In this document: positions 12,775 through 59,080 of the stretch, one piece after another
How the letters are laid out: the number at the start of each line of letters is the position of its first letter
Position numbering within the stretch: the first letter of the stretch is position 1
Assembly: GCA_964511175.1 (NCBI GenBank)
Contig: CAZEEI010000002.1
Location: 66,063 to 130,062, forward strand
Direction: 5' to 3'
DNA length: 64,000 nucleotides
DNA from: an uncultured Pseudomonadales bacterium
Lineage (GTDB): Bacteria; Patescibacteriota; Microgenomatia; UBA1400; UBA1396
Translations under genes and position numbers: made by a program
Notes under the pieces: model-generated
Databases searched by the model: none
Seen by the model: only the letters and a program-made list of their open reading frames with translations
What the model was told of the DNA's origin: nothing

Positions 12775-12852
12775 CGGGATGTAGCTCAGATGGCTTAGAG
12801 CGCACGCATGGGGTGCGTGAGGTCGCTGGTTCGAGTCCAGTCATCCCGACCA
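12775..12852 (+). tRNA. tRNA-Pro (anticodon GGG), 3' CCA encoded
   Basis: Manual cloverleaf: acceptor CGGGATG/CATCCCG, D-arm GCTC..GAGC, anticodon stem CACGC/GCGTG with loop AUGGGGU (U33, anticodon GGG, G37). T-arm GCTGG-TTCGAGT-CCAGT, discriminator A, then CCA. Confidence 0.8.
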
Positions 12853-25634: not shown

Positions 25635-26240
25635 ATGTCCTCACCTTTTCATGACCGCATGGGTCAATCCCTATCTTGGAGTCAAGCCGTCCGCAAAATT
25701 CTACGCCGCTGGTGGTCTTATTTGGAAGATTTAGAACTACTGTGGTTGTCGCTGGTAGCGGTAGTGCCGCTCCATTGGTTCCGCCGTTTGTTCTTTCGTC
25801 TCTCGGGAGTGAAAATCGGGAAAAACAGTACCATTCACATTGGTGCCCGCTTTTACGCGCCGCGCGGAGTGCGTATTGGTGAGGGGACTCTGGTGGGCGA
25901 CCACGTGGTTTTAGACGGTCGGGCGCCGCTGCAAATTGGTAATCACGTTGATATTGCTTCAGAGGTGATGATTTACAACGGTGAGCACAATATCCAAGCG
26001 GAAGATTTCCGGCCGGTTGAAGCGCCGGTTACGATTGGTGATTACGTGTTTATCGGGCCACGAGCCATTGTTTTGCCAGGGGTGAAAGTCGGCCGCGGGG
26101 CAGTTGTGGCGGCGGGTGCGGTAGTTACCAAGGATGTGCCGGAACAGGCGATGGTGGGTGGTGTGCCGGCTAAAGTTATCGGCGAACGGTCTTTGACCGA
26201 TTTTCACTACCGCCTCGGGCGGCCGCGACTGTTTCAGTAA
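25635..26240 (+). CDS. hexapeptide-repeat (LbH) acetyltransferase, WcaF/maltose-O-acetyltransferase-like
   Basis: Repeated [LIV]G.... hexapeptides ([52 protein letters not shown]). Confidence 0.7.
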
Positions 26241-26973
26241 AATTTTTACCTGGGTAGAACGCGCAGAGATTCCAGCTACGGCTTTCGTCAGTCATAAATA
26301 AAGTTGCTTCATTTAGTTGAGATGTCGTAATTTGACGTAATAAATCTTTGGCGATGGAGTCTGATGGATCGCTTAAATCAATCCAACCACGTCGACTTTG
26401 TTTAACATGAAAAAGGTGTCCGATAAGACCTTCTTCAGTAGTAAAACACAGAGCCAGAGTAGTTTGCCAACCACGGTGCTGATAATCGGCAACTTGGTCT
26501 AGGGTAGCCCGTTGAAAACAAAGTGCTGCATCGGCTGGTAATAAATTCTGTTTTTGCAAAGAAGATAATTCTTGCCGATATAAATACTGAGCCAATTTGT
26601 TTTCATAGCGAATAGCAGCTGACAAAATTTTAGGAGCTCGGGTTAGTTCATGAAAGAGGAAAGCACCCGGAGATAAATAAGCAACGGCTATTTGTTTTTT
26701 ACGTAGATGGTCGTGCTGTAAACGGTTAGTGGCGACTATTTGTTGTTGACGCTGCCGCCGCATTGATTGGGGCGGGTAGAGGTTCAGCGGCAATCCAGCC
26801 TGTTTGAGCATAGAGCGCCAGGCACGAACCACGCAAAGTCCAGATTGACCTTCGCGGGCTTGTTGCATTTCTGCCAGGCCCTGTTCAATTAAAGCTAGAG
26901 TTTCAGAATTATGGGCTTTAGACACAGTGCTTATTTTAACACCATCTTCGCCTTTTCTTAGTGTTGCTATCAC
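26176..26973 (-). CDS. hypothetical protein
   Basis: A long ORF on the minus strand with no recognised motif. Its 3' end overlaps the convergent acetyltransferase by 65 nt. Confidence 0.3.
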
Positions 26974-27038
26974 GCCTTTTTGCGTTTATAACTATCAATA
27001 GGGAGAAAAAGGAAAAAAGTCCTAGAATAAAATACGAG

Positions 27039-27479
27039 ATGTTAATCGGCAAATCCTACCACCTACTTGATTCGCAGCGGCGGGTGACTATTCCCAAAAA
27101 CCTGCGTGGTGAACTAGGATCACAGCCTATTTTGACGCGCGGCCTGGATGGGGGTATTTTCCTTTTGCCGGAAGTTTTTTGGTTCACCCTAGTTAACAAC
27201 CTTGAAAATCAAACCTTTACCAAAAAGAAAGCGCGTGACTTTTTGCGCTTGATGAGCAACGACGCTTACCCGGTGGAGCCGGATCGATTAGGGCGCATCA
27301 CGATTGCCGAATCACTGGCTACTCTGGCCGGTTTACGTAAAGAAGTGGTGGTAGTCGGTTCCCTGCAGTATGCCGAAATCTGGGATCGGGATAAATACCA
27401 TCAGTATTTAGACTCATTGTCCGGTGAAACGGAGAACATCGCCGAGTCGCTGGAGTGGGGAGAGACTTATGCATGTTAG
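27039..27479 (+). CDS. mraZ: transcriptional regulator MraZ
   Basis: Duplicated MraZ half-domains with DxxxR motifs (LDSQRRVTIP..., VEPDRLGRITIA). Start set at the internal MLIGKSYH. Confidence 0.8.
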   Translation: MLIGKSYHLLDSQRRVTIPKNLRGELGSQPILTRGLDGGIFLLPEVFWFTLVNNLENQTFTKKKARDFLRLMSNDAYPVEPDRLGRITIAESLATLAGLRKEVVVVGSLQYAEIWDRDKYHQYLDSLSGETENIAESLEWGETYAC

Positions 27480-28350
27480 TGTCTTAACCAAAGAGGCCGT
27501 AGATGCCTTGCAAGTCCAATCCGGACAGTGGTACTTAGATGGTACTTTCGGCCGAGGTGGACATACCCGTCATATTTTGGCAGCTGGTGGCAAGGTAATT
27601 GCCTTTGACGTTGATAGCGACGCGATCGCCTACGGTCAAACCGAATTAGCAACCGAGATTAAAGCCAAGCAATTAGTATTGGTCAATAGTAATTTTGCTA
27701 ATTTGAGCCGAGAACTATTCGGCCTAGGGCGCGAACAACACTCGTTGTCCGGAGCCATTTTTGATCTAGGCATGAGCTCCAATCAACTGGAGGAGTCGGG
27801 CCGCGGCTTTAGTTTTCAAAAAGATGAGCCACTCGATATGCGCATGAGTACCGAATTGGGCGTTACTGCTGCCGATTTGGTTAATGCTCTGCCGGAAAAG
27901 CATTTGAAAAATCTGTTTTGGGAGAATGCCCAAGAGAGTTTTGCCAGCGCTATTGCCCGAGCAATTGTGGAACAGCGTCAAAAACAGCCCTTCCACACTA
28001 CCACGGAATTAGCTGATCTTATTACCAAAGTTAAGCGCGGCCGCCAGGGATCACATCTACACCCGGCGACCAAAGTGTTCCAGGCGCTACGAATCGCCGT
28101 TAACATGGAACTAGATAATTTAACCGTTTTGCTGGATCAGGTACGCAACTGGCTTAAGCCGCACGGACGGTTGGTGATTATTTCCTTTCACGAAGGTGAA
28201 GACCGCCTGGTCAAACAGCGTTTCCAAACTTGGGAGGAAATGGGACGCGGTACTCAGATTACCGCTAAACCTATGGTTCCCAGTGAAGCGGAGTTGCAGG
28301 CCAACCCGCGTAGCCGCAGTGCCAAATTACGCGTATTGGAGGTAAAGTGA
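27469..28350 (+). CDS. rsmH: 16S rRNA (cytosine1402-N4)-methyltransferase RsmH
   Basis: HVSVL start, SAM loop DGTFGRGGH and FDLGMSS motif. It lies immediately downstream of mraZ. Confidence 0.85.
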   Translation: MHVSVLTKEAVDALQVQSGQWYLDGTFGRGGHTRHILAAGGKVIAFDVDSDAIAYGQTELATEIKAKQLVLVNSNFANLSRELFGLGREQHSLSGAIFDLGMSSNQLEESGRGFSFQKDEPLDMRMSTELGVTAADLVNALPEKHLKNLFWENAQESFASAIARAIVEQRQKQPFHTTTELADLITKVKRGRQGSHLHPATKVFQALRIAVNMELDNLTVLLDQVRNWLKPHGRLVIISFHEGEDRLVKQRFQTWEEMGRGTQITAKPMVPSEAELQANPRSRSAKLRVLEVK

Positions 28351-28618: not shown

Positions 28619-30367
28619 ATGCGTGATTTTAATCAAGGTTTATCACTAATCGAACAACGCCTGCGGTTGGGGCGTCTGGTTTTTGGTCTAGTTGTTTTAC
28701 TACTGTTGGGGCGTTTGGCTTACTGGCAATTATGGCAGCATGTGACTTTGTCTCAGGCAGCAGAGGCACAGTATGCCACCTCGCGAGCCATTCAAACTCA
28801 GCGCGGCACTATTTTTGACCGACATGGCCAAGTGATGGCCACTAACCAAGAGCGATATACTTTATTTGCCGAACCGCCGGTTCTGACGGCCGATCCGCCC
28901 ACTATTGTAGATAAGTTGTGGCCGATTTTAGCTACTTCGCTGGAGATTCCAGCCGAACGTGCGTCCGATGAAGCTTGGTTAAAAACCCAATCTCAAAATT
29001 GGCAAAACGAATTAGTTTCGACCTTAAGCGCTACGGATCGCAAGTGGTTGCCGCTCTGGCACCGTCTGGACCGCACCCAGCGTGACCAGATTAACGGTTT
29101 ATCTCTGACTGGTTTGGGTTTTGATCCCCGGGAGTATCGCTTGTATCCAGACGCGTCGGTATCGGCTCACATTTTAGGATTTGTCGGCAAGAATGAACAG
29201 GGCGAAGATCAAGGGTATTTTGGGGTAGAAGGTTACTATGATTTGGAGTTGCGCGGCCGGGCAGGGCGCGAAGAGCGCCAAACCACTGCCTTGGGTTTGC
29301 CGATCGCTCTAGGTCAAAGTCAGCAGTTGCGCGCCCAGCCCGGCCGCGACTTAGTACTAACCATCGACAAGGCCCTGCAATTTCGGGTTGAACAAGCCTT
29401 GCTAGCTGGTATTGAGCGTTATGGTGCCGCCAGTGGTGAGGTGGTAATTATGGATCCCCACAACGGTGAGATTTTAGCGATGGCGGCTTTTCCTAATTAC
29501 GACCCCAGCCATTTTCTCGATTTTGATCCCAAAGATTATCGTAATCCGGCGATTGCCGACCTTTATGAACCAGGTTCGACCTTTAAGATTCTAACGGTCG
29601 CGGCTGGTTTGGAAGAGGGGGTGATTACGCCGGAAACCCAGTGTCCAGACTGTGATGGCCCGCGCCTCATTTCCGGTTCCCCCATCCGCACCTGGGATGA
29701 ACAGTATCACCCCAACATCAACATTCGTGACGCGCTGGCCTTATCCGACAACACAGCTATGGTTTTTGTACAGGAACAGTTGGGTAAAGAATCTTTTCTG
29801 TCCTGGTTGCGCCGATTTGGTTTAGACCAGAAGACAGGAATTGATTTGCAGGGCGAAGAACAATACCTTTTCCGGCCGGATGACCAGTGGCGAACCATCG
29901 ACATAGCTACCGCCTCGTTTGGGCAAGGGATTGCTGTTTCCAGCCTAAGTCTAGTGAGAGCGGCGAGCGCGATTGCCAACGGTGGTTTTTTGATTCAACC
30001 TCACGTAGTGCAATCGGTTATTGATCAGGGTGTAACCCTGCCGGTGGAAACCGATCCGCCTCAAACCATTTTGTCGCCGGAAACGACCCGCACCGTTACC
30101 GACTTAATGATCAACGCTGTCCAAAAAGGTGATGCTAAATGGGTGGCTCCCCAGGATATGGTGGTGGCCGGTAAGACTGGCACTGCCCAAATTGCGGAAA
30201 AGGGGAAGTATTTAGAAGACAAAACGATTGCCAGTTTTATTGGTTTTGCGCCGGCCGATCATCCCGAATTTGTAATGTTGGTTAAACTGCGCGAACCAAC
30301 TACTTCACCTTGGGGTTCGGAGACGGCCGCACCGCTTTGGTTCCAGATTGCTCACTTTTTACGGTAA
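28619..30367 (+). CDS. ftsI: penicillin-binding protein 2/3 (FtsI-type transpeptidase)
   Basis: A TM anchor, a PBP dimerisation domain, and transpeptidase motifs SxxK (STFK), SxN (SDN) and KTG(T) (KTGTAQ). Confidence 0.85.
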   Translation: MRDFNQGLSLIEQRLRLGRLVFGLVVLLLLGRLAYWQLWQHVTLSQAAEAQYATSRAIQTQRGTIFDRHGQVMATNQERYTLFAEPPVLTADPPTIVDKLWPILATSLEIPAERASDEAWLKTQSQNWQNELVSTLSATDRKWLPLWHRLDRTQRDQINGLSLTGLGFDPREYRLYPDASVSAHILGFVGKNEQGEDQGYFGVEGYYDLELRGRAGREERQTTALGLPIALGQSQQLRAQPGRDLVLTIDKALQFRVEQALLAGIERYGAASGEVVIMDPHNGEILAMAAFPNYDPSHFLDFDPKDYRNPAIADLYEPGSTFKILTVAAGLEEGVITPETQCPDCDGPRLISGSPIRTWDEQYHPNINIRDALALSDNTAMVFVQEQLGKESFLSWLRRFGLDQKTGIDLQGEEQYLFRPDDQWRTIDIATASFGQGIAVSSLSLVRAASAIANGGFLIQPHVVQSVIDQGVTLPVETDPPQTILSPETTRTVTDLMINAVQKGDAKWVAPQDMVVAGKTGTAQIAEKGKYLEDKTIASFIGFAPADHPEFVMLVKLREPTTSPWGSETAAPLWFQIAHFLR

Positions 30368-30399
30368 TTTGCTATGCTAAGTGGCGAAAGGTTTAAAGT

Positions 30400-31644
30400 A
30401 TGAGGGTTGGCAAAGCAAGCACGGGCGAATCAGGATTAGGTAGAACTCAATTATTAACCGAAAAGCTTAAGCCGCAAAAAGAAAGAAAAATCCGCTGGTT
30501 CCGTTGGTGGAAAATTCTTTTAGGTTTAATTTTAGTAGGAGTGGTGACGGCGCCCAGCGGGAGTGAAAAAGTTTCCGCATTTGATCCGAATAATCAAGAG
30601 ATTCCAAGCGGGTGGGGGCTAGCCAGCTTGCTTGTTGACGCTGTCCGACAAGAGGCAGAAGCCGAAGCCAAAAAAATTGAAGATACCCTGGCCAGTGAGG
30701 TTGGAGAACGGGTTAATCCCTACTACCAACCCTACAGCGAAATAATGGCGCAGGGAATAGAAGAGTTTAAAGCGGCCCACCCAGATATACCAGTGGTCTG
30801 GCATAAATCTGAACAATATTTTGATGATACCGATCTGATCCGCATACTACTGACACCAATTACCGCAGAGGAGGTTTGGACTGACGAGGATGTTGGTACA
30901 TTACCAATCAAATATTTAGCCTCAGCAGCCACTAATAGTAGTACTGAAGACATGTCTAAACTTTCCTTGTTGATAAAGCATCGTTTACCTCCAGAAATAC
31001 TTGAGACTATTTTGCTTGCCGAGAGTCAAATACCAGTTGTCCCGGGGACTGATTTATATAACCAAGCAGGCGATCTTTATGACGAGAGTAGTTGGCAGCT
31101 TTTTGAGACATACTACAACGAAATTAAGCAAGATTTAGAAACAATATATCAAGAGAGAGGTGGTGGGGAGCCATTGTCCCAGTCTGCGGTCTTAGCTTAT
31201 TTTTTGGACAAATATAACGGTGATCTCAATGCTGCCCTGAGCGATTTATCCGGATTTATGAAGCAAATGAGATTCCAAATTAATTGGTTGCGAAAATATA
31301 TTCAGGATCAACATAATCCCTATTTTTCCCTCAATGATTTACCTCCTTTTGGTGAAACTACGGATTTTCCGGGCAAACATTTTGCCCAAAGTGATTTACT
31401 ACTCTATGACACAATGCCTGGGGAACAGCAGGATTGGGCCACCAGTATTTGGGGTCTGAGCTATCACTCACCATATATGGTAAAGCTTTTGTCGGACTCT
31501 TCGCCAGAAGTAATTAAATTGTTTTGTCTCTACGAATACATAAACTATGATCATGTAGCCGAGCCATACAAAGAAATTTATGATTTTCTTATGCTGGACG
31601 AACTTTACGAGATACTCGCCCTGCTTGAGTCCTATAGTCGATAG
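30400..31644 (+). CDS. hypothetical membrane-anchored protein (414 aa)
   Basis: A basic cytoplasmic N-terminus, one TM helix (WKILLGLILVGVVTA) and an approx. 350-aa acidic ectodomain with no recognised motif. It sits in an AT-richer segment. Confidence 0.4.
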   Translation: MRVGKASTGESGLGRTQLLTEKLKPQKERKIRWFRWWKILLGLILVGVVTAPSGSEKVSAFDPNNQEIPSGWGLASLLVDAVRQEAEAEAKKIEDTLASEVGERVNPYYQPYSEIMAQGIEEFKAAHPDIPVVWHKSEQYFDDTDLIRILLTPITAEEVWTDEDVGTLPIKYLASAATNSSTEDMSKLSLLIKHRLPPEILETILLAESQIPVVPGTDLYNQAGDLYDESSWQLFETYYNEIKQDLETIYQERGGGEPLSQSAVLAYFLDKYNGDLNAALSDLSGFMKQMRFQINWLRKYIQDQHNPYFSLNDLPPFGETTDFPGKHFAQSDLLLYDTMPGEQQDWATSIWGLSYHSPYMVKLLSDSSPEVIKLFCLYEYINYDHVAEPYKEIYDFLMLDELYEILALLESYSR

Positions 31645-31731
31645 GTATTCCTGTAAAAGGGATGAAGTTGTATAGGGATATAGACCAATACCGAGAATTG
31701 TAATAGGATGAATGTATTGTAAGGGAGTGTT

Positions 31732-33819
31732 ATGCCAGAAAAAAATGGGCCTGATTTTGATAATCCAGGAATGACACCACAGCTCTATGAGGGTCCGGTT
31801 GCCTATACTCTGGATACACAAAAGCATTCGGTGAAAATTGGTGCTACAGATCTGGATTCTATAGAAACTACGCGCATAACTAATGAATCTTCTCCAGAAA
31901 GCCAGCAAGCCTTTGTCGAACAACGTCAGCATATGGCTGAGATGGAAAATGCCATGATGGATGCATCAGTGCTTATTACTGCAGAGGGTGTGGATCCGGC
32001 AGTTAAAGCTGAATTGCGAGCCTATCTACAGTCAATTGGGAAAAGCATTCAAACACTTGTTGCCAAGATGCCAAAGTTGAAAGAAACATATGCCTATATT
32101 TTTAAGGCACAAAAGAGACAGCTCGAACCGCACAGACCATCGCTTACAGTTGCCCCGGAAGTGGTTTTACCCGTAGATTTGGCAAGGGAAGCCAAACAAC
32201 ATGTCCAGGATTTTCTGTTTGGGGGCGAGGGGTCTTCTGGCACGCCGCGCATTAACATTAAAGAGAATACCACTACACAAAAACTGGAGATAAGTTCCTA
32301 TCGGTATATTCCTGATCCCGGCGGAAATCCTCATTTAGATAGAGAAGAGGTTGTTCCTCTCGGATGGAGAGGTAATGTTGATTGGCAACCAGATAGCGGG
32401 GTGCGACGCAAATATCCCGATCTAGACAAGCTTTGTTTAGCTTTAAAACCGATTCTAGAGAGAGAAGTAGCCAGTATTTTGCCGAGTTTATCAACAGAGC
32501 CCTTGGCCAAGGCAACTAGGGCAAAAATTGAAGCCTGTTGTGCCAATAAAACGGCTAATGTTTTGTATACCCTTGATAGTGCCTTTGACTCCAAGAGTTT
32601 GGTGACCGATATATCCCTAGAGGGGCCGGACAAATCAGGCATAGTAGAGGCTGTGATGTTGCGACGGGAACAAGGGGTAGGAAAAAAGAAAGCCGACCGT
32701 TTACATTTGCCTGAAACGGCTTATCTAGATAGAAAACGAGTTGAGCCTCAAGATCTGTCTGACCCCCAACTACGAGCTGATTTGAGTGATCTACACGGTT
32801 CGGGCGTGTCAGAGGCTGAGTTGATGGGGTTATATGCTCCTCTGCCTGATTATGCACTACGAGCGTTGGAAGGCTTGCTGGACGACGAGGGGAATGTGGT
32901 GAGTTTGGTGTCGCGTGATCAGATTATGGCGCTGTTTGATGTTTCATCAGGAGCTCCACATCAGTCGAAAAATACTTTGTTAGACCAAATAAGTAAAGAT
33001 GTGGCCGATATTGTCATCCTAAAAGAAAAAAGGAAACATCAAGCTGATGTTGATTTAAAATCTACGCTTGATCGGCAACAAAACGGTTTATATCAGGAGA
33101 TTAGGAGTTTTCTGGCTAAATTAAATCCGCCCGCTTCTCGACTAGAGGATGTAGTGGCGCGAAAAGGAAGACTTGGCTTAGGTGGCGTAACCAATCAAGC
33201 CGATGTCGAAGCCAGGGAAGATTTTGAACGCCGCCAGACTGAATTGAGCGAACAGCAACGAGTGGTTAGTGAAAGGTTGAAGGCCTATAAGCCACAGACT
33301 GTTTATGGTTCGCAGGATGAGGGACAAGTTATGGCAGGGATTCAGAGACAGCTTGATCGTGCTGTCACGCTTACCTACAAAGCGGGGTCCTTACCAATCA
33401 TTTTGGACCAAGATTTATTTAAGGGTGTGACATCGGAACCGATGGAAACTTTAGTTGACCGATTACGGGAAAAACTTGATCAGCAAGCACAAAAGATAGC
33501 GTCGACCGTAGCGGCTGAAACGGCAGCGACGATAGATAAATTGACACAGGACTTTGCCAGAACTAAGGCTCTTTTAGAAAGAGTGATGGAAACCCCGGAT
33601 CAATCAAGGATGCAGGAGGCTGTTTTAGCCTATATTCAGGGAAGAATGTACAATTTTTCAGATGATCGGTTGTCTATGTATAAACCTGAGCAAAGAATCT
33701 TCTATTATGCTGGCCAAAGAAGCCGGGCAACGGCGGCGAGGTGGTCTGTTTCGTCGGTTCCTGAGAATATCCGAGAGAGAGTGCGGCTTTTTGATGTTTT
33801 GCCTCAAGATGCGGTATAG
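31732..33819 (+). CDS. large hypothetical protein (695 aa)
   Basis: A long uninterrupted ORF with an RBS-like GGGAG upstream. No TM segments or motifs were recognised. The composition is similar to the preceding ORF. Confidence 0.45.
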   Translation: MPEKNGPDFDNPGMTPQLYEGPVAYTLDTQKHSVKIGATDLDSIETTRITNESSPESQQAFVEQRQHMAEMENAMMDASVLITAEGVDPAVKAELRAYLQSIGKSIQTLVAKMPKLKETYAYIFKAQKRQLEPHRPSLTVAPEVVLPVDLAREAKQHVQDFLFGGEGSSGTPRINIKENTTTQKLEISSYRYIPDPGGNPHLDREEVVPLGWRGNVDWQPDSGVRRKYPDLDKLCLALKPILEREVASILPSLSTEPLAKATRAKIEACCANKTANVLYTLDSAFDSKSLVTDISLEGPDKSGIVEAVMLRREQGVGKKKADRLHLPETAYLDRKRVEPQDLSDPQLRADLSDLHGSGVSEAELMGLYAPLPDYALRALEGLLDDEGNVVSLVSRDQIMALFDVSSGAPHQSKNTLLDQISKDVADIVILKEKRKHQADVDLKSTLDRQQNGLYQEIRSFLAKLNPPASRLEDVVARKGRLGLGGVTNQADVEAREDFERRQTELSEQQRVVSERLKAYKPQTVYGSQDEGQVMAGIQRQLDRAVTLTYKAGSLPIILDQDLFKGVTSEPMETLVDRLREKLDQQAQKIASTVAAETAATIDKLTQDFARTKALLERVMETPDQSRMQEAVLAYIQGRMYNFSDDRLSMYKPEQRIFYYAGQRSRATAARWSVSSVPENIRERVRLFDVLPQDAV

Positions 33820-33860
33820 CTTGTTTATCTACTTCGCTGAGGTGCTATTCTATAAAAGTA

Positions 33861-35054
33861 ATGTTGAGTTTATTGCGTGTCCGCCGCATTCACCACTGGT
33901 TTAGTTCTTTTCTGTTTAGGGCTTTACCAGCCAATCTGTATTATGGTTTCCCAGGTCGAAGGCTGAAAATCTACGGCATTACCGGTACAGATGGTAAAAC
34001 GACTAGTGCCACTTTGCTTTATCAAGTACTTAAAACGGCTGGTTATAAAGTGGCACTAATTTCGACCGTGGCGGCTTTTATCGGCAATGAGGAAATCGAT
34101 ACCGGCTTCCACGTGACTTCGCCGGAGCCGTGGGCGCTGCAGCGATTGTTGCGCCGTTGTTTGGATCGTGGAATCGAACATGTAGTGCTGGAGGTAACTT
34201 CGCATGGTTTTTTTCAGTACCGAACGTGGGGCACTGAGTTTGCTGTGGCTGGTTTGACCAATATCACTCCGGAGCACCTCGATTATTTTGAAACTTATGA
34301 GCGATATGCACGAGTAAAAGGCGAATTTTTATTATCAGCTAAACAAGCGATTCTTAATAAATCCGATCGTTCCTTTTCTTTACTGCAGCTGATGTTTAAC
34401 CGACACCATCACACCTATTTAATTTATGATCAGAAACTAAGCAGTAATGAGGTTGATCGTGCCATTAGTGATCGTTTTACCGAACCCTACAATTGCTGGA
34501 ATGCCAAATTGGTGTGGGCCATGGCGGAGCAACTAGGTATTACCACTAATGTTTTTACCCAAGCCTCAACCTCTTTTACTGGTGTGCGCGGCCGGATGGA
34601 AGAGATTGCCAACCGAACCGGTAAGCGGGTGATTGTTGATTTTGCCCATACACCCAACGGACTAGAGCAAGCCCTGACCGCTTTGCGCCCGCAAGCCAAA
34701 CAACAACTAATTGCGGTTTATGGGTGCGCGGGTTTTCGCGACCGTAGTAAACGGGCGCCGATGGGACGAATTGGCACCGAGATTGCTGATCTTTGCGTTT
34801 TCACCAGCGAAGACCCGCGCACGGAAGATATCCAAGTAATCATGCGCCAGATGAAAGAGGGAGTGCAGCCGCCCCACCACCGCAAGATCGTTACTATTCC
34901 CGATCGACGCGCCGCCATCGCTTTTGCTCTCCAACAAGCCAAACGCGGTGACGTGGTAGGCATCTTTGGTAAGGGTCACGAAAAGTCTTTGTGTATCGGT
35001 AAAAAGGAATATCCCTGGTCGGATCAGGAAACGGTGCGGGAGTTGTTAGGCTAG
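33861..35054 (+). CDS. murE: UDP-N-acetylmuramoyl-L-alanyl-D-glutamate--2,6-diaminopimelate ligase
   Basis: Mur ligase P-loop GITGTDGKTT and the DxR/HTP C-terminal region (DFAHTPNGL) match MurE. The N-terminal domain is short. Confidence 0.75.
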   Translation: MLSLLRVRRIHHWFSSFLFRALPANLYYGFPGRRLKIYGITGTDGKTTSATLLYQVLKTAGYKVALISTVAAFIGNEEIDTGFHVTSPEPWALQRLLRRCLDRGIEHVVLEVTSHGFFQYRTWGTEFAVAGLTNITPEHLDYFETYERYARVKGEFLLSAKQAILNKSDRSFSLLQLMFNRHHHTYLIYDQKLSSNEVDRAISDRFTEPYNCWNAKLVWAMAEQLGITTNVFTQASTSFTGVRGRMEEIANRTGKRVIVDFAHTPNGLEQALTALRPQAKQQLIAVYGCAGFRDRSKRAPMGRIGTEIADLCVFTSEDPRTEDIQVIMRQMKEGVQPPHHRKIVTIPDRRAAIAFALQQAKRGDVVGIFGKGHEKSLCIGKKEYPWSDQETVRELLG

Positions 35055-35087
35055 TTTAGTCGGGATTAACCGAATGTTTAAGATAAG

Positions 35088-35906
35088 ATGGTAAAGAATA
35101 AACTGACAGCAATCACTCGCTGGTTTATTGGCACCTTCTTTGTTCTAGCAATTCTCTCGGTCTGTCAACCGAAATCCGCTCCGACACCTGTTCTCGAAGT
35201 TATTCAGCCAGAAACGACACCAACCCTCACTAGCGAACCACCCACCCAGCCAGAAAGCAACAAACAAGAAGCCACTTTAATTCGGGTAATTGATGGCGAT
35301 ACGGTGGAGGCTTCAATCAGTGGCAGTAAGCAGACAATTCGGGTTATTGGCATTGATACTCCTGAGACGGTTGATCCTCGGAAAAGGGTTGAGTGTTTTG
35401 GCACTGAGGCATCTAAGCAAGCCAAACTTTACTTTGAAGGTAATGAACAAATTTGGCTGGAGTCAGATTCGACTCAGAGTGATAGGGACAAATACGGCCG
35501 ATTGTTGCGTTATATTTTTACCGATGATGGTTCGGTGGATTATGGCCGGGTAATGATTACTCTTGGCTATGCGAACGAATACACCTACAGCAATCCTTAT
35601 AAATATCAATCAATTTATCAGCAAGCCGAACAAGAGGCTCGAGACGGCAAGAAAGGGTTGTGGGCAGATGATGCTTGCGTGGCTACGCCGAATCCAACTG
35701 CTAAACCAATTACTAATTCACAACCAGTCGCGCCGGCAACGAGTGTTGGGAAAAAAAGTTGCTCTGGACCAGATTTAGACTGCGGTGATTTTTCTTCGCG
35801 TTCCGAAGTCCGCCAATTTTGGAACGCTTGTGGATTTTCAGCCAGTAATGATCCGCATAGACTTGATGGTAGTGACCAAGATGGTCAACCCTGTGAGAGT
35901 TTATAA
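35088..35906 (+). CDS. secreted thermonuclease (SNase-like) with a C-terminal Excalibur Ca-binding domain
   Basis: A signal/anchor segment. The SNase core is VIDGDTV...IRVIGIDTPE...GRLLRYIF...GYA. The C-terminus DCGDFSSRSEVRQFWNACG...DPHRLDGSDQDGQPCE matches the Excalibur consensus. Confidence 0.7.
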   Translation: MVKNKLTAITRWFIGTFFVLAILSVCQPKSAPTPVLEVIQPETTPTLTSEPPTQPESNKQEATLIRVIDGDTVEASISGSKQTIRVIGIDTPETVDPRKRVECFGTEASKQAKLYFEGNEQIWLESDSTQSDRDKYGRLLRYIFTDDGSVDYGRVMITLGYANEYTYSNPYKYQSIYQQAEQEARDGKKGLWADDACVATPNPTAKPITNSQPVAPATSVGKKSCSGPDLDCGDFSSRSEVRQFWNACGFSASNDPHRLDGSDQDGQPCESL

Positions 35907-35981
35907 AACCTGATTAGAGACCGCAGGCTAGGGCGATGTATAATTTTCTTGTATCACTACGCTACTACATAGAAAAAAGAC

Positions 35982-41259: not shown

Positions 41260-41274
41260 AGTACAATACAACCC

Positions 41275-43492: not shown

Positions 43493-43540
43493 ATTTTCAA
43501 ACTACCGCACAATTCTGACCAAACCTGTACAATAAAAGCT

Positions 43541-55938: not shown

Positions 55939-56682
55939 TTAGGATGACTTTCTGGTTATCTTTATCCATTTTCCAGCAGGCTCCACTTTTTCTATCATTG
56001 CAAAGGCTTTAGAACCAATTTTATCAGCCATTCTTTGAAGATCATTTGGCTTGCAGCTGATATATAAAACACCACCAGGTTTCGCTAGCATAAGTTGTGC
56101 CTCAAGAGTTTCATCACTAGGTCCAAAAGCATTGACAATAACATCTCCGGTTCCATTTAGGTTCGCAAAATCATCTTTACCGATAAGACCGGTTTGCATA
56201 CTCAATTCTTCCTCTTTTCGCATCGAAGCTTCTACTAACGTCTGGATACGTTCTCTTTGTTTACCGATGTCAAAAGTATCGGTAAATCCCATTTTATTAA
56301 GCTGTGACTCAATGGATTTTAAATCTTCCAGTAACAATTCAAGGTTTACCTGATCGATAATGACTTTAGTATTAGGGGAATGCCCTCTTTCCCTTTGTTT
56401 TTGCGATATTTCTAGTGGAACTAAACTTGAACCATTGCCTAAAAATATTGTTGTTCCACGATTGTCAGTTATATCTTGTACAACCTGATCGCCAAATTCA
56501 TGACCAAACATTTCAAGAGTTCTTGCTGTGATGCCGCTACCCATACTAAAAGCATCAAGTTCATGTTGCGGTCTCAAGGATAATCCATCTAATTCGATAC
56601 CGCTTTTCATGGGGGTATTCAAAGCTATTTGTTGAAGAGCTTCAGAAATTGCGTAGATATCTTTAGGTTGTTCGTCTGACAT
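55939..56682 (-). CDS. hypothetical protein, possible SAM-MTase-like Rossmann fold
   Basis: TIFLGNGSS and DVIVNAFGP...LAKPGGVLYI resemble methyltransferase motifs I and post-III. This is weak. Confidence 0.3.
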   Translation of the reverse strand: MSDEQPKDIYAISEALQQIALNTPMKSGIELDGLSLRPQHELDAFSMGSGITARTLEMFGHEFGDQVVQDITDNRGTTIFLGNGSSLVPLEISQKQRERGHSPNTKVIIDQVNLELLLEDLKSIESQLNKMGFTDTFDIGKQRERIQTLVEASMRKEEELSMQTGLIGKDDFANLNGTGDVIVNAFGPSDETLEAQLMLAKPGGVLYISCKPNDLQRMADKIGSKAFAMIEKVEPAGKWIKITRKSS

Positions 56683-58331: not shown

Positions 58332-58952
58332 TTAAATCTTTTGCCAACCAACTCTAATTGACCACTTTTCAAAAGACTTTTGTCTCTCAAGTCTATCTTT
58401 TGGCGGTTTTTCATTACTTTCTTCAACAAGTTTTCTCTGTTTTGTTATCGTTTCGGATAATGGAGGCAATCCCATTCCTTTTCTAAGAATGTCTACTTTT
58501 TCAGGATTTTCAATCGGATTAGGCGACATTTGGTTATTTTCATCCCAATCAAATTGAGTACCGTAGATTTGCTTTTTTCCTTCAAAAATTCTGATTCTAT
58601 CTTCTAACATAGCTATTTGGTCTAGCGGAACCTCACCTTTGTTTGCTTGGACCTTCAGTATTTTCAGACAATTTCTCTGCAGTTCAGGCAAACTAATGGC
58701 ATGTTGGGCAATAAGCCAAGCATTTCTTGCACCAGTTTCACCAACTAAACTTTTCCCTGGCCAGCCATACTGATTAATAATTTCCAAAAGTCTTTCACCG
58801 TTTCTGTTGTGAACTTTTTCCATTTCAGGGTGATACCCCTCAAACAAACTTCCATCTTTTGCAAGTTCGTCACGTAATCGATAGTCCTCATCTATCATTT
58901 TTTGAAGTTCAAACGAGATAGTTTTCCAATTAGAATCGTAAGGAGTTGTCAT
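58332..58952 (-). CDS. hypothetical protein (206 aa)
   Basis: A clean ORF with a Lys/Glu-rich C-terminus and no motif recognised. Confidence 0.35.
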   Translation of the reverse strand: MTTPYDSNWKTISFELQKMIDEDYRLRDELAKDGSLFEGYHPEMEKVHNRNGERLLEIINQYGWPGKSLVGETGARNAWLIAQHAISLPELQRNCLKILKVQANKGEVPLDQIAMLEDRIRIFEGKKQIYGTQFDWDENNQMSPNPIENPEKVDILRKGMGLPPLSETITKQRKLVEESNEKPPKDRLERQKSFEKWSIRVGWQKI

Positions 58953-59009
58953 TTATTGTATTCTTATGTAATTTCCTAGTAACTTTGCGGTTATTTCTGT
59001 CACTTTATG

Positions 59010-59080
59010 AGCGGGTGAAGGGAATCGGACCCTCGTATTCTGCTTGGAAGGCAGACGCTCTACCACTGAGCTACACCCGC
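59010..59080 (-). tRNA. tRNA-Gly (anticodon TCC), no encoded CCA
   Basis: The minus-strand cloverleaf has acceptor GCGGGTG/CACCCGC and D-arm GCTC-AGTGGTA-GAGC. The anticodon stem is TCTGC/GCAGA with loop CUUCCAA. There is a 4-nt variable loop, T-arm GAGGG-TCCGATT-CCCTT and discriminator U. Confidence 0.8.

Follow-up and report, generated by a model that had tools for sequence, protein, structure and literature searches.

Genes that do not belong to the division and cell wall (dcw) cluster are found directly upstream of murE in Mycobacterium tuberculosis, where PE_PGRS38 (Rv2162c), Rv2161c, Rv2160c and Rv2159c precede murE (Rv2158c); reverse transcription PCR (RT-PCR) detected no co-transcription across Rv2159c-murE, and a murE promoter was located inside Rv2159c (PMC3605390). 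A comparable arrangement is described here for 64,000 nucleotides of contig CAZEEI010000002.1 from an uncultured bacterium (the whole stretch is hereafter called the window), in which two genes, designated X and Y, separate ftsI from murE. The mycobacterial ftsI homologue (pbpB, Rv2163c) is presumably positioned on the far side of the inserted genes, the cited paper showing the murE side only. In both organisms, non-dcw and lineage-restricted genes are placed directly upstream of murE and are tolerated in an otherwise conserved cluster. One of the genes inserted in M. tuberculosis encodes a surface-type protein, and murE of that species has its own promoter, in or after the last inserted gene; likewise, murE of the window is preceded by a -10-like box before its ATG. 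The cargo itself is unrelated (PE_PGRS, oxidoreductase, TetR and AhpD-like proteins versus the orphan X and the family member Y) and the two organisms belong to different phyla. Furthermore, the lack of co-transcription in M. tuberculosis was demonstrated by RT-PCR, whereas transcription in the window is predicted from sequence signals. Gene gain at the ftsI|murE boundary is already known from M. tuberculosis.

Variable islets and integration hotspots between conserved core genes are a general concept of bacterial pangenomics. The locus resembles them in that the same core flanks enclose unrelated accessory genes, that the cargo has a lower GC content at third codon positions (GC3) and that many of the genes have no known function. 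It differs in having no integrase, tRNA or repeats and only tiny cargo (1–3 genes), as well as in that the slot interrupts an array of genes read in one direction, where no operon boundary is obvious. Genomes of the candidate phyla radiation (CPR), to which the window belongs, are not known for classic islands.

X and Y are interpreted here as accessory genes of one lineage, inserted at a permissive site whose content varies repeatedly, and expressed via the mraZ-ftsI transcript, with X as an acidic surface protein, exported or anchored by its N-terminus, and Y as a fast-evolving cytoplasmic protein independent of it. Taken as a whole this interpretation is considered probable, if by no means certain; its evolutionary part deserves much more confidence than the whole.

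The ftsI|murE junction in the window and in related genomes

X occupies positions 30400–31644 (+ strand; 414 aa, ATG start) and Y positions 31732–33819 (+ strand; 695 aa, ATG start), the coordinates being exact for the open reading frames (ORFs) as called. The upstream flank, ftsI (28619–30367, + strand), encodes a class B penicillin-binding protein (PBP) with the Pfam domains PBP_dimer and Transpeptidase; its NCBIfam matches (spoVD_pbp, pbp2_mrdA and FtsI) are all class B PBP/FtsI-family models, each scoring under its curated cut-off. The downstream flank is murE (33861–35054, + strand; 397 aa; TIGR01085, E 1.9e-101). In a previous, sequence-only reading of this DNA, two unknown, tightly spaced ORFs of one orientation had been described between ftsI and murE; the profile-verified flanks and spacers of 32, 87 and 41 nt agree with that description. 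In alignments with relatives, the C-terminus of FtsI and the N-terminus of MurE are both intact and collinear, and the 3,493 nt that separate the two genes are therefore a clean intergenic insertion.

The homology search with FtsI placed the window in the Patescibacteria/CPR, the named matches being Microgenomates, Pacebacteria, Cerribacteria and Saccharimonadia with ~46–49% identity and other relatives reaching 54–70%. Scans of genome and metagenome contigs with FtsI peptides yielded only distant phyla (26–33% identity) of no use for synteny. The relatives considered here are eight loci (L016, L017, L018, L019, L024, L025, L026 and L027) obtained from the FtsI search and contig look-ups; in a common alignment their FtsI proteins are 53–68% identical to that of the window. 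Gene order is largely kept in all of them, reading glycosyltransferase-glycosyltransferase-ruvC-ruvA-ruvB-hexapeptide-repeat gene-variable slot-mraZ-rsmH-ftsL-ftsI in the upstream half and murE-NUDIX-cofD-murC-murB-murA-map-recQ (- strand)-PMT_2 in the downstream half, with small local differences.

In six of the eight relatives ftsI adjoins murE, including the three nearest, namely L016 (FtsI 68%, 12-nt spacer), L017 (67%, 5-nt spacer) and L027 (67%, 12-nt spacer). The two genes overlap in L018 (61%), and they are separated by 137 nt in L024 (58%) and by 106 nt in L026 (53%). The direct succession of ftsI and murE had been assumed to be the normal order, and for these six members of the clade it is. 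The universal presence of X and Y in relatives had been named as a refuting outcome; the opposite was found, as both are missing from the junction in all eight.

The two remaining relatives carry cargo of their own. The junction of L019 (FtsI 60%) holds a 525-aa ORF without Pfam match, and that of L025 (62%) holds a 165-aa ORF, a 757-aa ORF and an antisense Ser/Thr kinase gene. According to BLASTP, hmmsearch --max with the Y-family profile and hhalign, the cargoes of the window, L019 and L025 are mutually unrelated. Two candidates were rejected in the course of this comparison: the L019 525-aa protein as a relative of X or Y, being unrelated by sequence comparison, and the L025 757-aa protein as a hidden homologue of Y, suggested by the same isoelectric point (pI) and by hydrophobicity peaking at residue 235 (hmmsearch --max E 1.4; hhalign probability 0.3%). 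In the neighbour-joining tree of FtsI, the window groups with the three direct-junction genomes, and the cargo-bearing L019 and L025 are positioned on other, separate branches; three independent gains at ftsI|murE appear to be the simplest reading of this tree.

The 137-nt spacer of L024 (L024:7786-7922) is a near-perfect palindrome with terminal arms of ~18 bp (GGGTCGAACCCTCTTCAC...), a folding energy of -47 kcal/mol and a fold z of -4.15, followed by TATAAT 6 nt before the GTG of murE. It may be a regulatory element or one resembling miniature inverted-repeat transposable elements (MITE-like), and can be taken as a fourth sign that the junction takes up foreign DNA. The same flanks thus enclose non-homologous content, with cargo in three of nine genomes (window, L019 and L025) in addition to the L024 palindrome. 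The survival of X and Y inside so conserved an operon had been read as a hint of co-transcription with division and wall genes. In this clade the junction is not inviolate, and survival therefore reflects a permissive slot and not a functional tie with division. Because the content of this site changes repeatedly within the clade and insertions are tolerated there, X and Y are regarded as passengers and not as components of the division or wall machinery.

A separate observation concerns murE in L025: the antisense Ser/Thr protein kinase gene (L025:10470-11687, - strand) is located directly upstream of murE, inside the dcw array, so that murE of that genome must have its own promoter.

Coding potential, composition and expression signals

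Both genes are intact in a second assembly (Logan SRR8925802), where they lie on a 36.8-kb contig, compared with the 201-kb NCBI contig; the Logan assembly probably derives from the same sample. The frameshifts that a further assembly might have revealed, and that had been named as a ground for doubt, are not present there. In a leave-one-out codon model built from the window's own genes, X and Y score in the middle of the range (z -0.54 and -0.66, respectively), with values of +0.28 to +0.29 in frame 0 versus -0.40 to -0.66 in the shifted frames. X and Y are real genes with near-native codon usage. An antisense 154-aa ORF (31468–31932, - strand) spans the X-Y spacer and was treated as probably spurious.

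An assembly chimera, or a non-coding nature of X and Y, is hardly credible. The lack of any homologue of X and its very poor structure prediction would suit such an artefact, but synteny resumes exactly at the murE start codon, the sequence is identical in two assemblies, the in-frame codon signal is strong for both ORFs, chance would hardly produce an open frame of 414 codons, and Y is conserved over its full length with homologues of similar size. The insertion exists, its boundaries are clean, the nearest relatives lack X and Y, and both ORFs are coding.

The GC content and GC3 are 0.426 and 0.398 for X and 0.457 and 0.394 for Y. With a mean GC3 of 0.481 (sd 0.064) for the genes of the window, X and Y rank 6th and 7th lowest of 56 (z about -1.3). 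They had been described as AT-richer than the flanking genes, which is borne out by the lower GC3, but the difference is mild and codon usage is native-like. Near-native codon usage means that X and Y are either not very recent or derived from a similar genome. Four lineage-specific genes, i.e. X, Y, a 265-aa ORF upstream of mraZ and a staphylococcal-nuclease-domain (SNase) gene downstream of murE, are among the seven lowest in GC3 of the 56 (hypergeometric P 9.5e-5).

The three spacers differ in their signals (all + strand). The ftsI-X spacer (30368–30399, 32 nt) contains a weak Shine-Dalgarno (SD)-like AAAGG at 30387–30391 and no -10-like box. The X-Y spacer (31645–31731, 87 nt) contains AAGGGAG at 31721–31727, the strongest SD in the window, and no Rfam family at the gathering threshold. 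The Y-murE spacer (33820–33860, 41 nt) lacks an SD and has a -10-like TATAAA (33851–33856), which ends 4 nt before the ATG of murE. None of the three spacers contains a convincing terminator or sigma-70-like promoter, both kinds of site being rarer in the region than in shuffled sequence. A terminator-like hairpin inside the coding sequence of X (30491–30511) was dismissed as a chance occurrence, such sites numbering 8 versus 13.5 in shuffled sequence.

Across the window, SD sites are few, preceding 12 of 43 genes even with lenient 4-mers. Boxes of the -10-like form TAnnnT ending 3–9 nt before the start codon occur in 12 of 42 genes versus 2.7 ± 1.6 at random positions (2,000 trials, maximum 9), for example at 33851–33856, 35079–35084, 35970–35975, 41262–41267 and 43528–43533. 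This suggests that leaderless or very short-leader mRNAs are widespread in the genome. The murE, SNase and NUDIX genes have such boxes 3–6 nt before their starts; X and Y have their SD-like motifs (AAAGG and AAGGGAG) and no -10 box. Co-transcription of X and Y with ftsI by read-through is plausible, and the TATAAA in front of murE may act as the promoter of a transcript with a short leader or none. Given this box and the missing SD, the transcription unit may have been divided by the insertion, as is the case in M. tuberculosis. Among the nearest relatives, the ftsI-murE spacer (5–12 nt) contains GGAG or GAAGA, which suggests a translational coupling of the two genes that the insertion would have broken.

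X as a putative exported protein

X begins with a basic N-terminal tail (aa 1–36; net charge +8 over the first 50 residues), followed by a single, weak hydrophobic segment (aa ~39–51, nt 30514–30552; maximum Kyte-Doolittle hydropathy, KD19, of 1.52 at residues ~33–52) and a possible signal-peptidase site, VSA|F, at aa 58–61. The remainder is acidic (pI 4.57), with a C-terminal domain of ~355 aa predicted to be helical. There is no alternative in-frame start between the ATG and the hydrophobic segment. The previous proposal of a single-pass protein with a large acidic ectodomain is well matched by these features, as hydropathy and charge fit an extracytoplasmic or anchored acidic protein, and X is probably exported or membrane-anchored. 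The marks of a sortase-anchored protein are lacking, inspection of the translation and hydropathy having revealed neither an LPXTG motif nor a C-terminal hydrophobic segment.

No Pfam family was matched by X at E<=0.01, and no match was obtained in NCBIfam, PHROG or PDB sequences; the only PADLOC row, PDC-M02B (E 0.012, 12.5 bits), is far below threshold. A word-indexed search of a 5.8-billion-cluster database returned X itself only, and no X-like ORF was found near the homologues of Y or in the loci of the relatives, even with phmmer --max. Distant relatives of X may exist. The AlphaFold2 (AF2) model is all-helical with a predicted local distance difference test (pLDDT) value of 39.

In its basic tail, one hydrophobic segment, extracytoplasmic domain and dcw location beside ftsI, X is similar to the bitopic divisome proteins FtsQ/DivIB, FtsL, FtsB/DivIC and FtsN. 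FtsQ has a POTRA/beta domain, whereas the ectodomain of X is predicted, in a low-confidence model, to be all-helical and acidic. X also differs from all these proteins in having no family match, in that its gene is missing from 8/8 relatives and in that its hydrophobic segment is short (~13–15 residues) and followed by VSA|F, for which reason X may be secreted instead. Neither X nor Y gave a significant match to the Pfam and NCBIfam models for MurF, MraY, MurD, FtsW, MurG, FtsQ, FtsA, FtsZ and Ddl.

Y and its homologues

Y has no signal peptide and no membrane segment (maximum KD19 0.95), nor has it, on inspection of the translation and its hydropathy, an LPXTG motif or a C-terminal hydrophobic segment; it appears to be a soluble cytoplasmic protein. 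Pfam families at E<=0.01 and matches in PHROG, PADLOC and PDB sequences were not found, and the only NCBIfam row, TIGR00750 (E 0.0067), scores 15.6 bits versus a cut-off of 240. The earlier statement that neither X nor Y has a recognisable motif stands, since Pfam, NCBIfam, PHROG, PADLOC and PDB sequences gave no significant match for either.

A word-indexed homology search returned Y itself only; this reflected a limit of sensitivity, as exhaustive phmmer against 1.84 billion representative proteins retrieved three homologues, all from CPR-type metagenomic contigs. P0123 (713 aa; phmmer E 6.4e-61) is encoded behind a sortase gene and several genes for exported hypothetical proteins (L020), P0124 (693 aa; E 4.8e-57) belongs to the array ftsK-HTH_25-small transmembrane (TM) protein-alaS-Y-geneD (L021), and P0125 (685 aa; E 1.7e-10) lies in alaS-Y-geneD (L023). 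The homologues share with Y 26–31% identity, a length of 685–713 aa, the absence of TM segments and signal peptides, and an acidic pI. The four sequences align over their full length with 30 invariant columns. The best-conserved part (~residues 170–400) contains the shared motifs PILEREV (P240, L242, R244, E245), K318-x-K320-A321...Y331 and P370...E380...D384..G387. P0123 lacks a C-terminal sorting signal despite the adjoining sortase gene.

All four proteins are without annotation, solved structure or confident predicted structure. Pfam searches with every member produced sub-threshold noise only, and ClpX, the best PDB match of the family profile (E 0.06 over 55 residues), was taken as chance. 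The AF2 model of Y, based on the four-sequence alignment, has a pLDDT of 46.6 and consists of long helices with a somewhat better small alpha/beta region at 150–285. Foldseek comparison of the X and Y models with PDB and BFVD gave no match at E<=0.001, the TM values of about 0.1 being meaningless.

Unlike Y, the homologues are not located in a dcw cluster and not beside an X-like gene. The products of geneD (L021:8006-8458 and L023:3849-4412) have no Pfam match and are 31% identical to each other (E 5e-14), on contigs that are unrelated. P0124 and P0125 thus occupy the orthologous position alaS-Y-geneD with ~21% identity, and a position kept during divergence to this level means that the Y family evolves fast. 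Furthermore, the occurrence of homologues in non-dcw contexts without X demonstrates that Y is not tied to dcw and occurs independently of X. The previous suggestion that both genes encode cell-surface or host-interaction proteins of an episymbiont is speculative as regards hosts and applies at most to X, because Y has no export signal and its homologues are not accompanied by X.

That X and Y were ancestral to the clade and have been precisely deleted in the relatives is very unlikely. The two Y-family members at the orthologous alaS-Y-geneD position speak for an old family, fast-evolving in at least one lineage, and this much would suit an ancestral presence. Several independent and precise deletions leaving SD-containing spacers of 5–12 nt would be needed, however, and the nearest relatives all lack X and Y, the other occupants of the junction are unrelated, the GC3 of X and Y is low, and the homologues of Y amount to three clusters in the whole database, none of them at a dcw junction.

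The neighbourhoods of the homologues also bear on the question of whether X, Y or both assist the divisome or the cell wall in a lineage-specific manner, functionally coupled to FtsI and MurE and for that reason co-expressed with them. Homologues of Y are found near ftsK and the RodZ-like HTH_25 gene, or near sortase and glycosyltransferase genes; X and Y themselves lie between ftsI and murE on the same strand, with short spacers and no terminator; the bitopic N-in/C-out topology of X is, from general knowledge, typical of FtsQ, FtsL, FtsB and FtsN; and long helices, as in the low-confidence model of Y, are seen in many division scaffolds. Such a role is nevertheless judged unlikely, since X and Y are missing from the three nearest and three other relatives that share the dcw array and are not found together elsewhere, the junction in other genomes has unrelated cargo including an antisense kinase, two of the Y homologues are flanked by alaS, and there is no Pfam match to POTRA, FtsQ, FtsB, FtsL or any other divisome family. 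The preferred interpretation remains that of an accessory insertion at a variable slot.

Signs of mobility and defence

No significant repeats flank the insert, no recombinase, transposase or integrase family was matched by X or Y in Pfam, and no tRNA lies beside the insert, the nearest being at 12775 and 59009. In tblastn searches, X and Y had no match in 50,697 phage records, nor did Y alone in 72,556 plasmid records; an IMG/VR scan with X alone was equally without match. The homologues of Y gave no significant match in PADLOC and PHROGs, and neither X nor Y is recognised as part of a defence system. For the other junction cargo and the SNase protein, PADLOC and PHROGs returned generic kinase and nuclease domain matches only, the L025 kinase matching PADLOC PD-T4-6 kinase models (E 2.5e-29) and the nuclease of the window matching the SNc model.

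These results argue against an integration hotspot whose insert is what is left of a mobile element, or is an islet serving defence or competition (for example toxin/immunity or anti-phage). Only a small probability is assigned to this explanation. It would account for a slot that is variable with unrelated cargo in each genome, for the PD-T4-6 match of the L025 kinase, for the MITE-like palindrome at the same junction in L024, for the low GC3 of all local lineage-specific genes and for the nuclease gene inserted one gene downstream. For the kinase and the SNase, however, only generic domains were matched, and integrase, transposase, terminal repeats, att-like duplication and adjacent tRNA are all absent. 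Moreover, neither X, Y nor the relatives of Y have a significant PADLOC or PHROG match (PDC-M02B for X being weak), and the phage records (X and Y), plasmid records (Y) and IMG/VR (X) contain no match.

A model of the insertion

According to the interpretation preferred here, a 3.5-kb intergenic insertion into ftsI|murE would have taken place in the otherwise rigidly conserved dcw sub-cluster of a Microgenomates-like CPR clade. Read-through from ftsI would yield a transcript on which X and Y are internal cistrons, translated from their SD sites, and murE would be re-started from its own -10 box just upstream of the ATG. X would be inserted in an N-in/C-out orientation, or secreted after cleavage at VSA|F; in both cases it would be an envelope or surface protein specific to the niche, exposing an acidic helical domain rich in aromatic residues on the outside of the cell. 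Y would act in the cytoplasm independently of X, as a fast-evolving, helix-rich protein relocated between loci in CPR genomes.

Several points weigh against this model. The hotspot claim is based on three of nine genomes and one hairpin element, nine genomes being the whole sample. No mechanism of insertion is visible, given the lack of flanking repeats, integrase, transposase and tRNA, and the codon usage of X and Y is close to native. The orphan status of X comes from a word-indexed search of the kind that missed the 30%-identical homologues of Y, and the structural models (pLDDT 39 and 47) are too poor to support or exclude any fold. Finally, several Y-family neighbourhoods hold envelope or division genes (ftsK, RodZ-like HTH_25, sortase, glycosyltransferases), so that a wall-related role is conceivable.

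Neighbouring genes and further variable slots

Upstream of ftsI, the window contains mraZ (PF02381), rsmH (PF01795, E 1.5e-90) and an 89-aa ORF at the FtsL position. The longest-ORF starts make mraZ (26961–27479) and rsmH (27424–28350) overlap; shorter forms of mraZ (146 aa) and rsmH (293 aa) are used in the gene calls of the Logan contig, and the true mraZ start is probably near 27039. Downstream of murE, the SNase gene is followed by NUDIX, cofD/yvcK-like and murC genes and then by ORFs at the murB, murA and map positions, whose domain assignments are precomputed Pfam hits on the identical Logan contig.

MurE of the window (397 aa) and of all eight relatives (398–434 aa) consists of Mur_ligase_M and C domains and has no N-terminal, UDP-MurNAc-binding domain. 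Matches of the clade's MurE proteins to the murE model begin at position ~74, and the MurC encoded in these loci retains its N-terminal domain. The ideas that the MurE N-domain was lost through the insertion, or is encoded in an overlapping 80-aa ORF (33662–33904), were rejected because all relatives are equally short and their N-termini align.

A second variable slot lies between the hexapeptide-repeat gene and mraZ. In the window it holds the 265-aa ORF (26176–26973, - strand; GC3 0.331), which has no Pfam match, is ~30% identical to the 202-aa occupant in L017 and is homologous to no other. The slot contains a 339-aa ORF in L025, a 280-aa ORF in L019, an ABC transporter in L024, a NUDIX gene in L026 and two tiny ORFs in L016, and is empty in L018; it is variable in almost every genome. 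A third local insertion, between murE and the NUDIX gene, is the SNase gene (35088–35906, + strand; GC3 0.381), missing from 8/8 relatives. Its 272-aa product, with a hydrophobic segment at the N-terminus and Cys in the C-terminal tail, may be a secreted nuclease. The lowest GC3 in the window (0.28) belongs to two genes at 55939–56682 and 58332–58952 (both - strand), of which one has no Pfam match and the other encodes a DUF6624 protein; they lie near tRNA-Gly (59009–59080) and may form another accessory patch.

Significance

The history of the dcw cluster has been described as gene loss and dispersal with 'likely no gene gain' (PMC8871954). In the present case, unrelated genes were gained cleanly and independently at a single dcw junction, as judged from the two other cargo-bearing relatives, the palindrome in a third and the precedent in M. 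tuberculosis. Possibly, the ftsI|murE boundary is a soft spot where separation of the cluster into units with promoters of their own does no harm.

A further-reaching proposal is that ftsI|murE serves as a plug-in expression slot, at which lineages repeatedly install fast-evolving proteins of their own to be made in step with septal wall synthesis. It is considered quite improbable; were it true, the surface-displayed X and the helical, cytoplasmic Y would represent novel factors for the envelope or for attachment, coupled to division, in an ultra-small bacterium that may be episymbiotic, and the unrelated occupants of L019 and L025 would be their functional analogues. The present evidence does not reveal a new division mechanism: the window holds an accessory insertion at a variable slot, and Y belongs only to its own four-cluster family. 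Orphan genes are commonplace in CPR genomes, and what the finding contributes to CPR biology is a predicted exported orphan and a protein family that is very rare, both candidates for functions specific to the niche.

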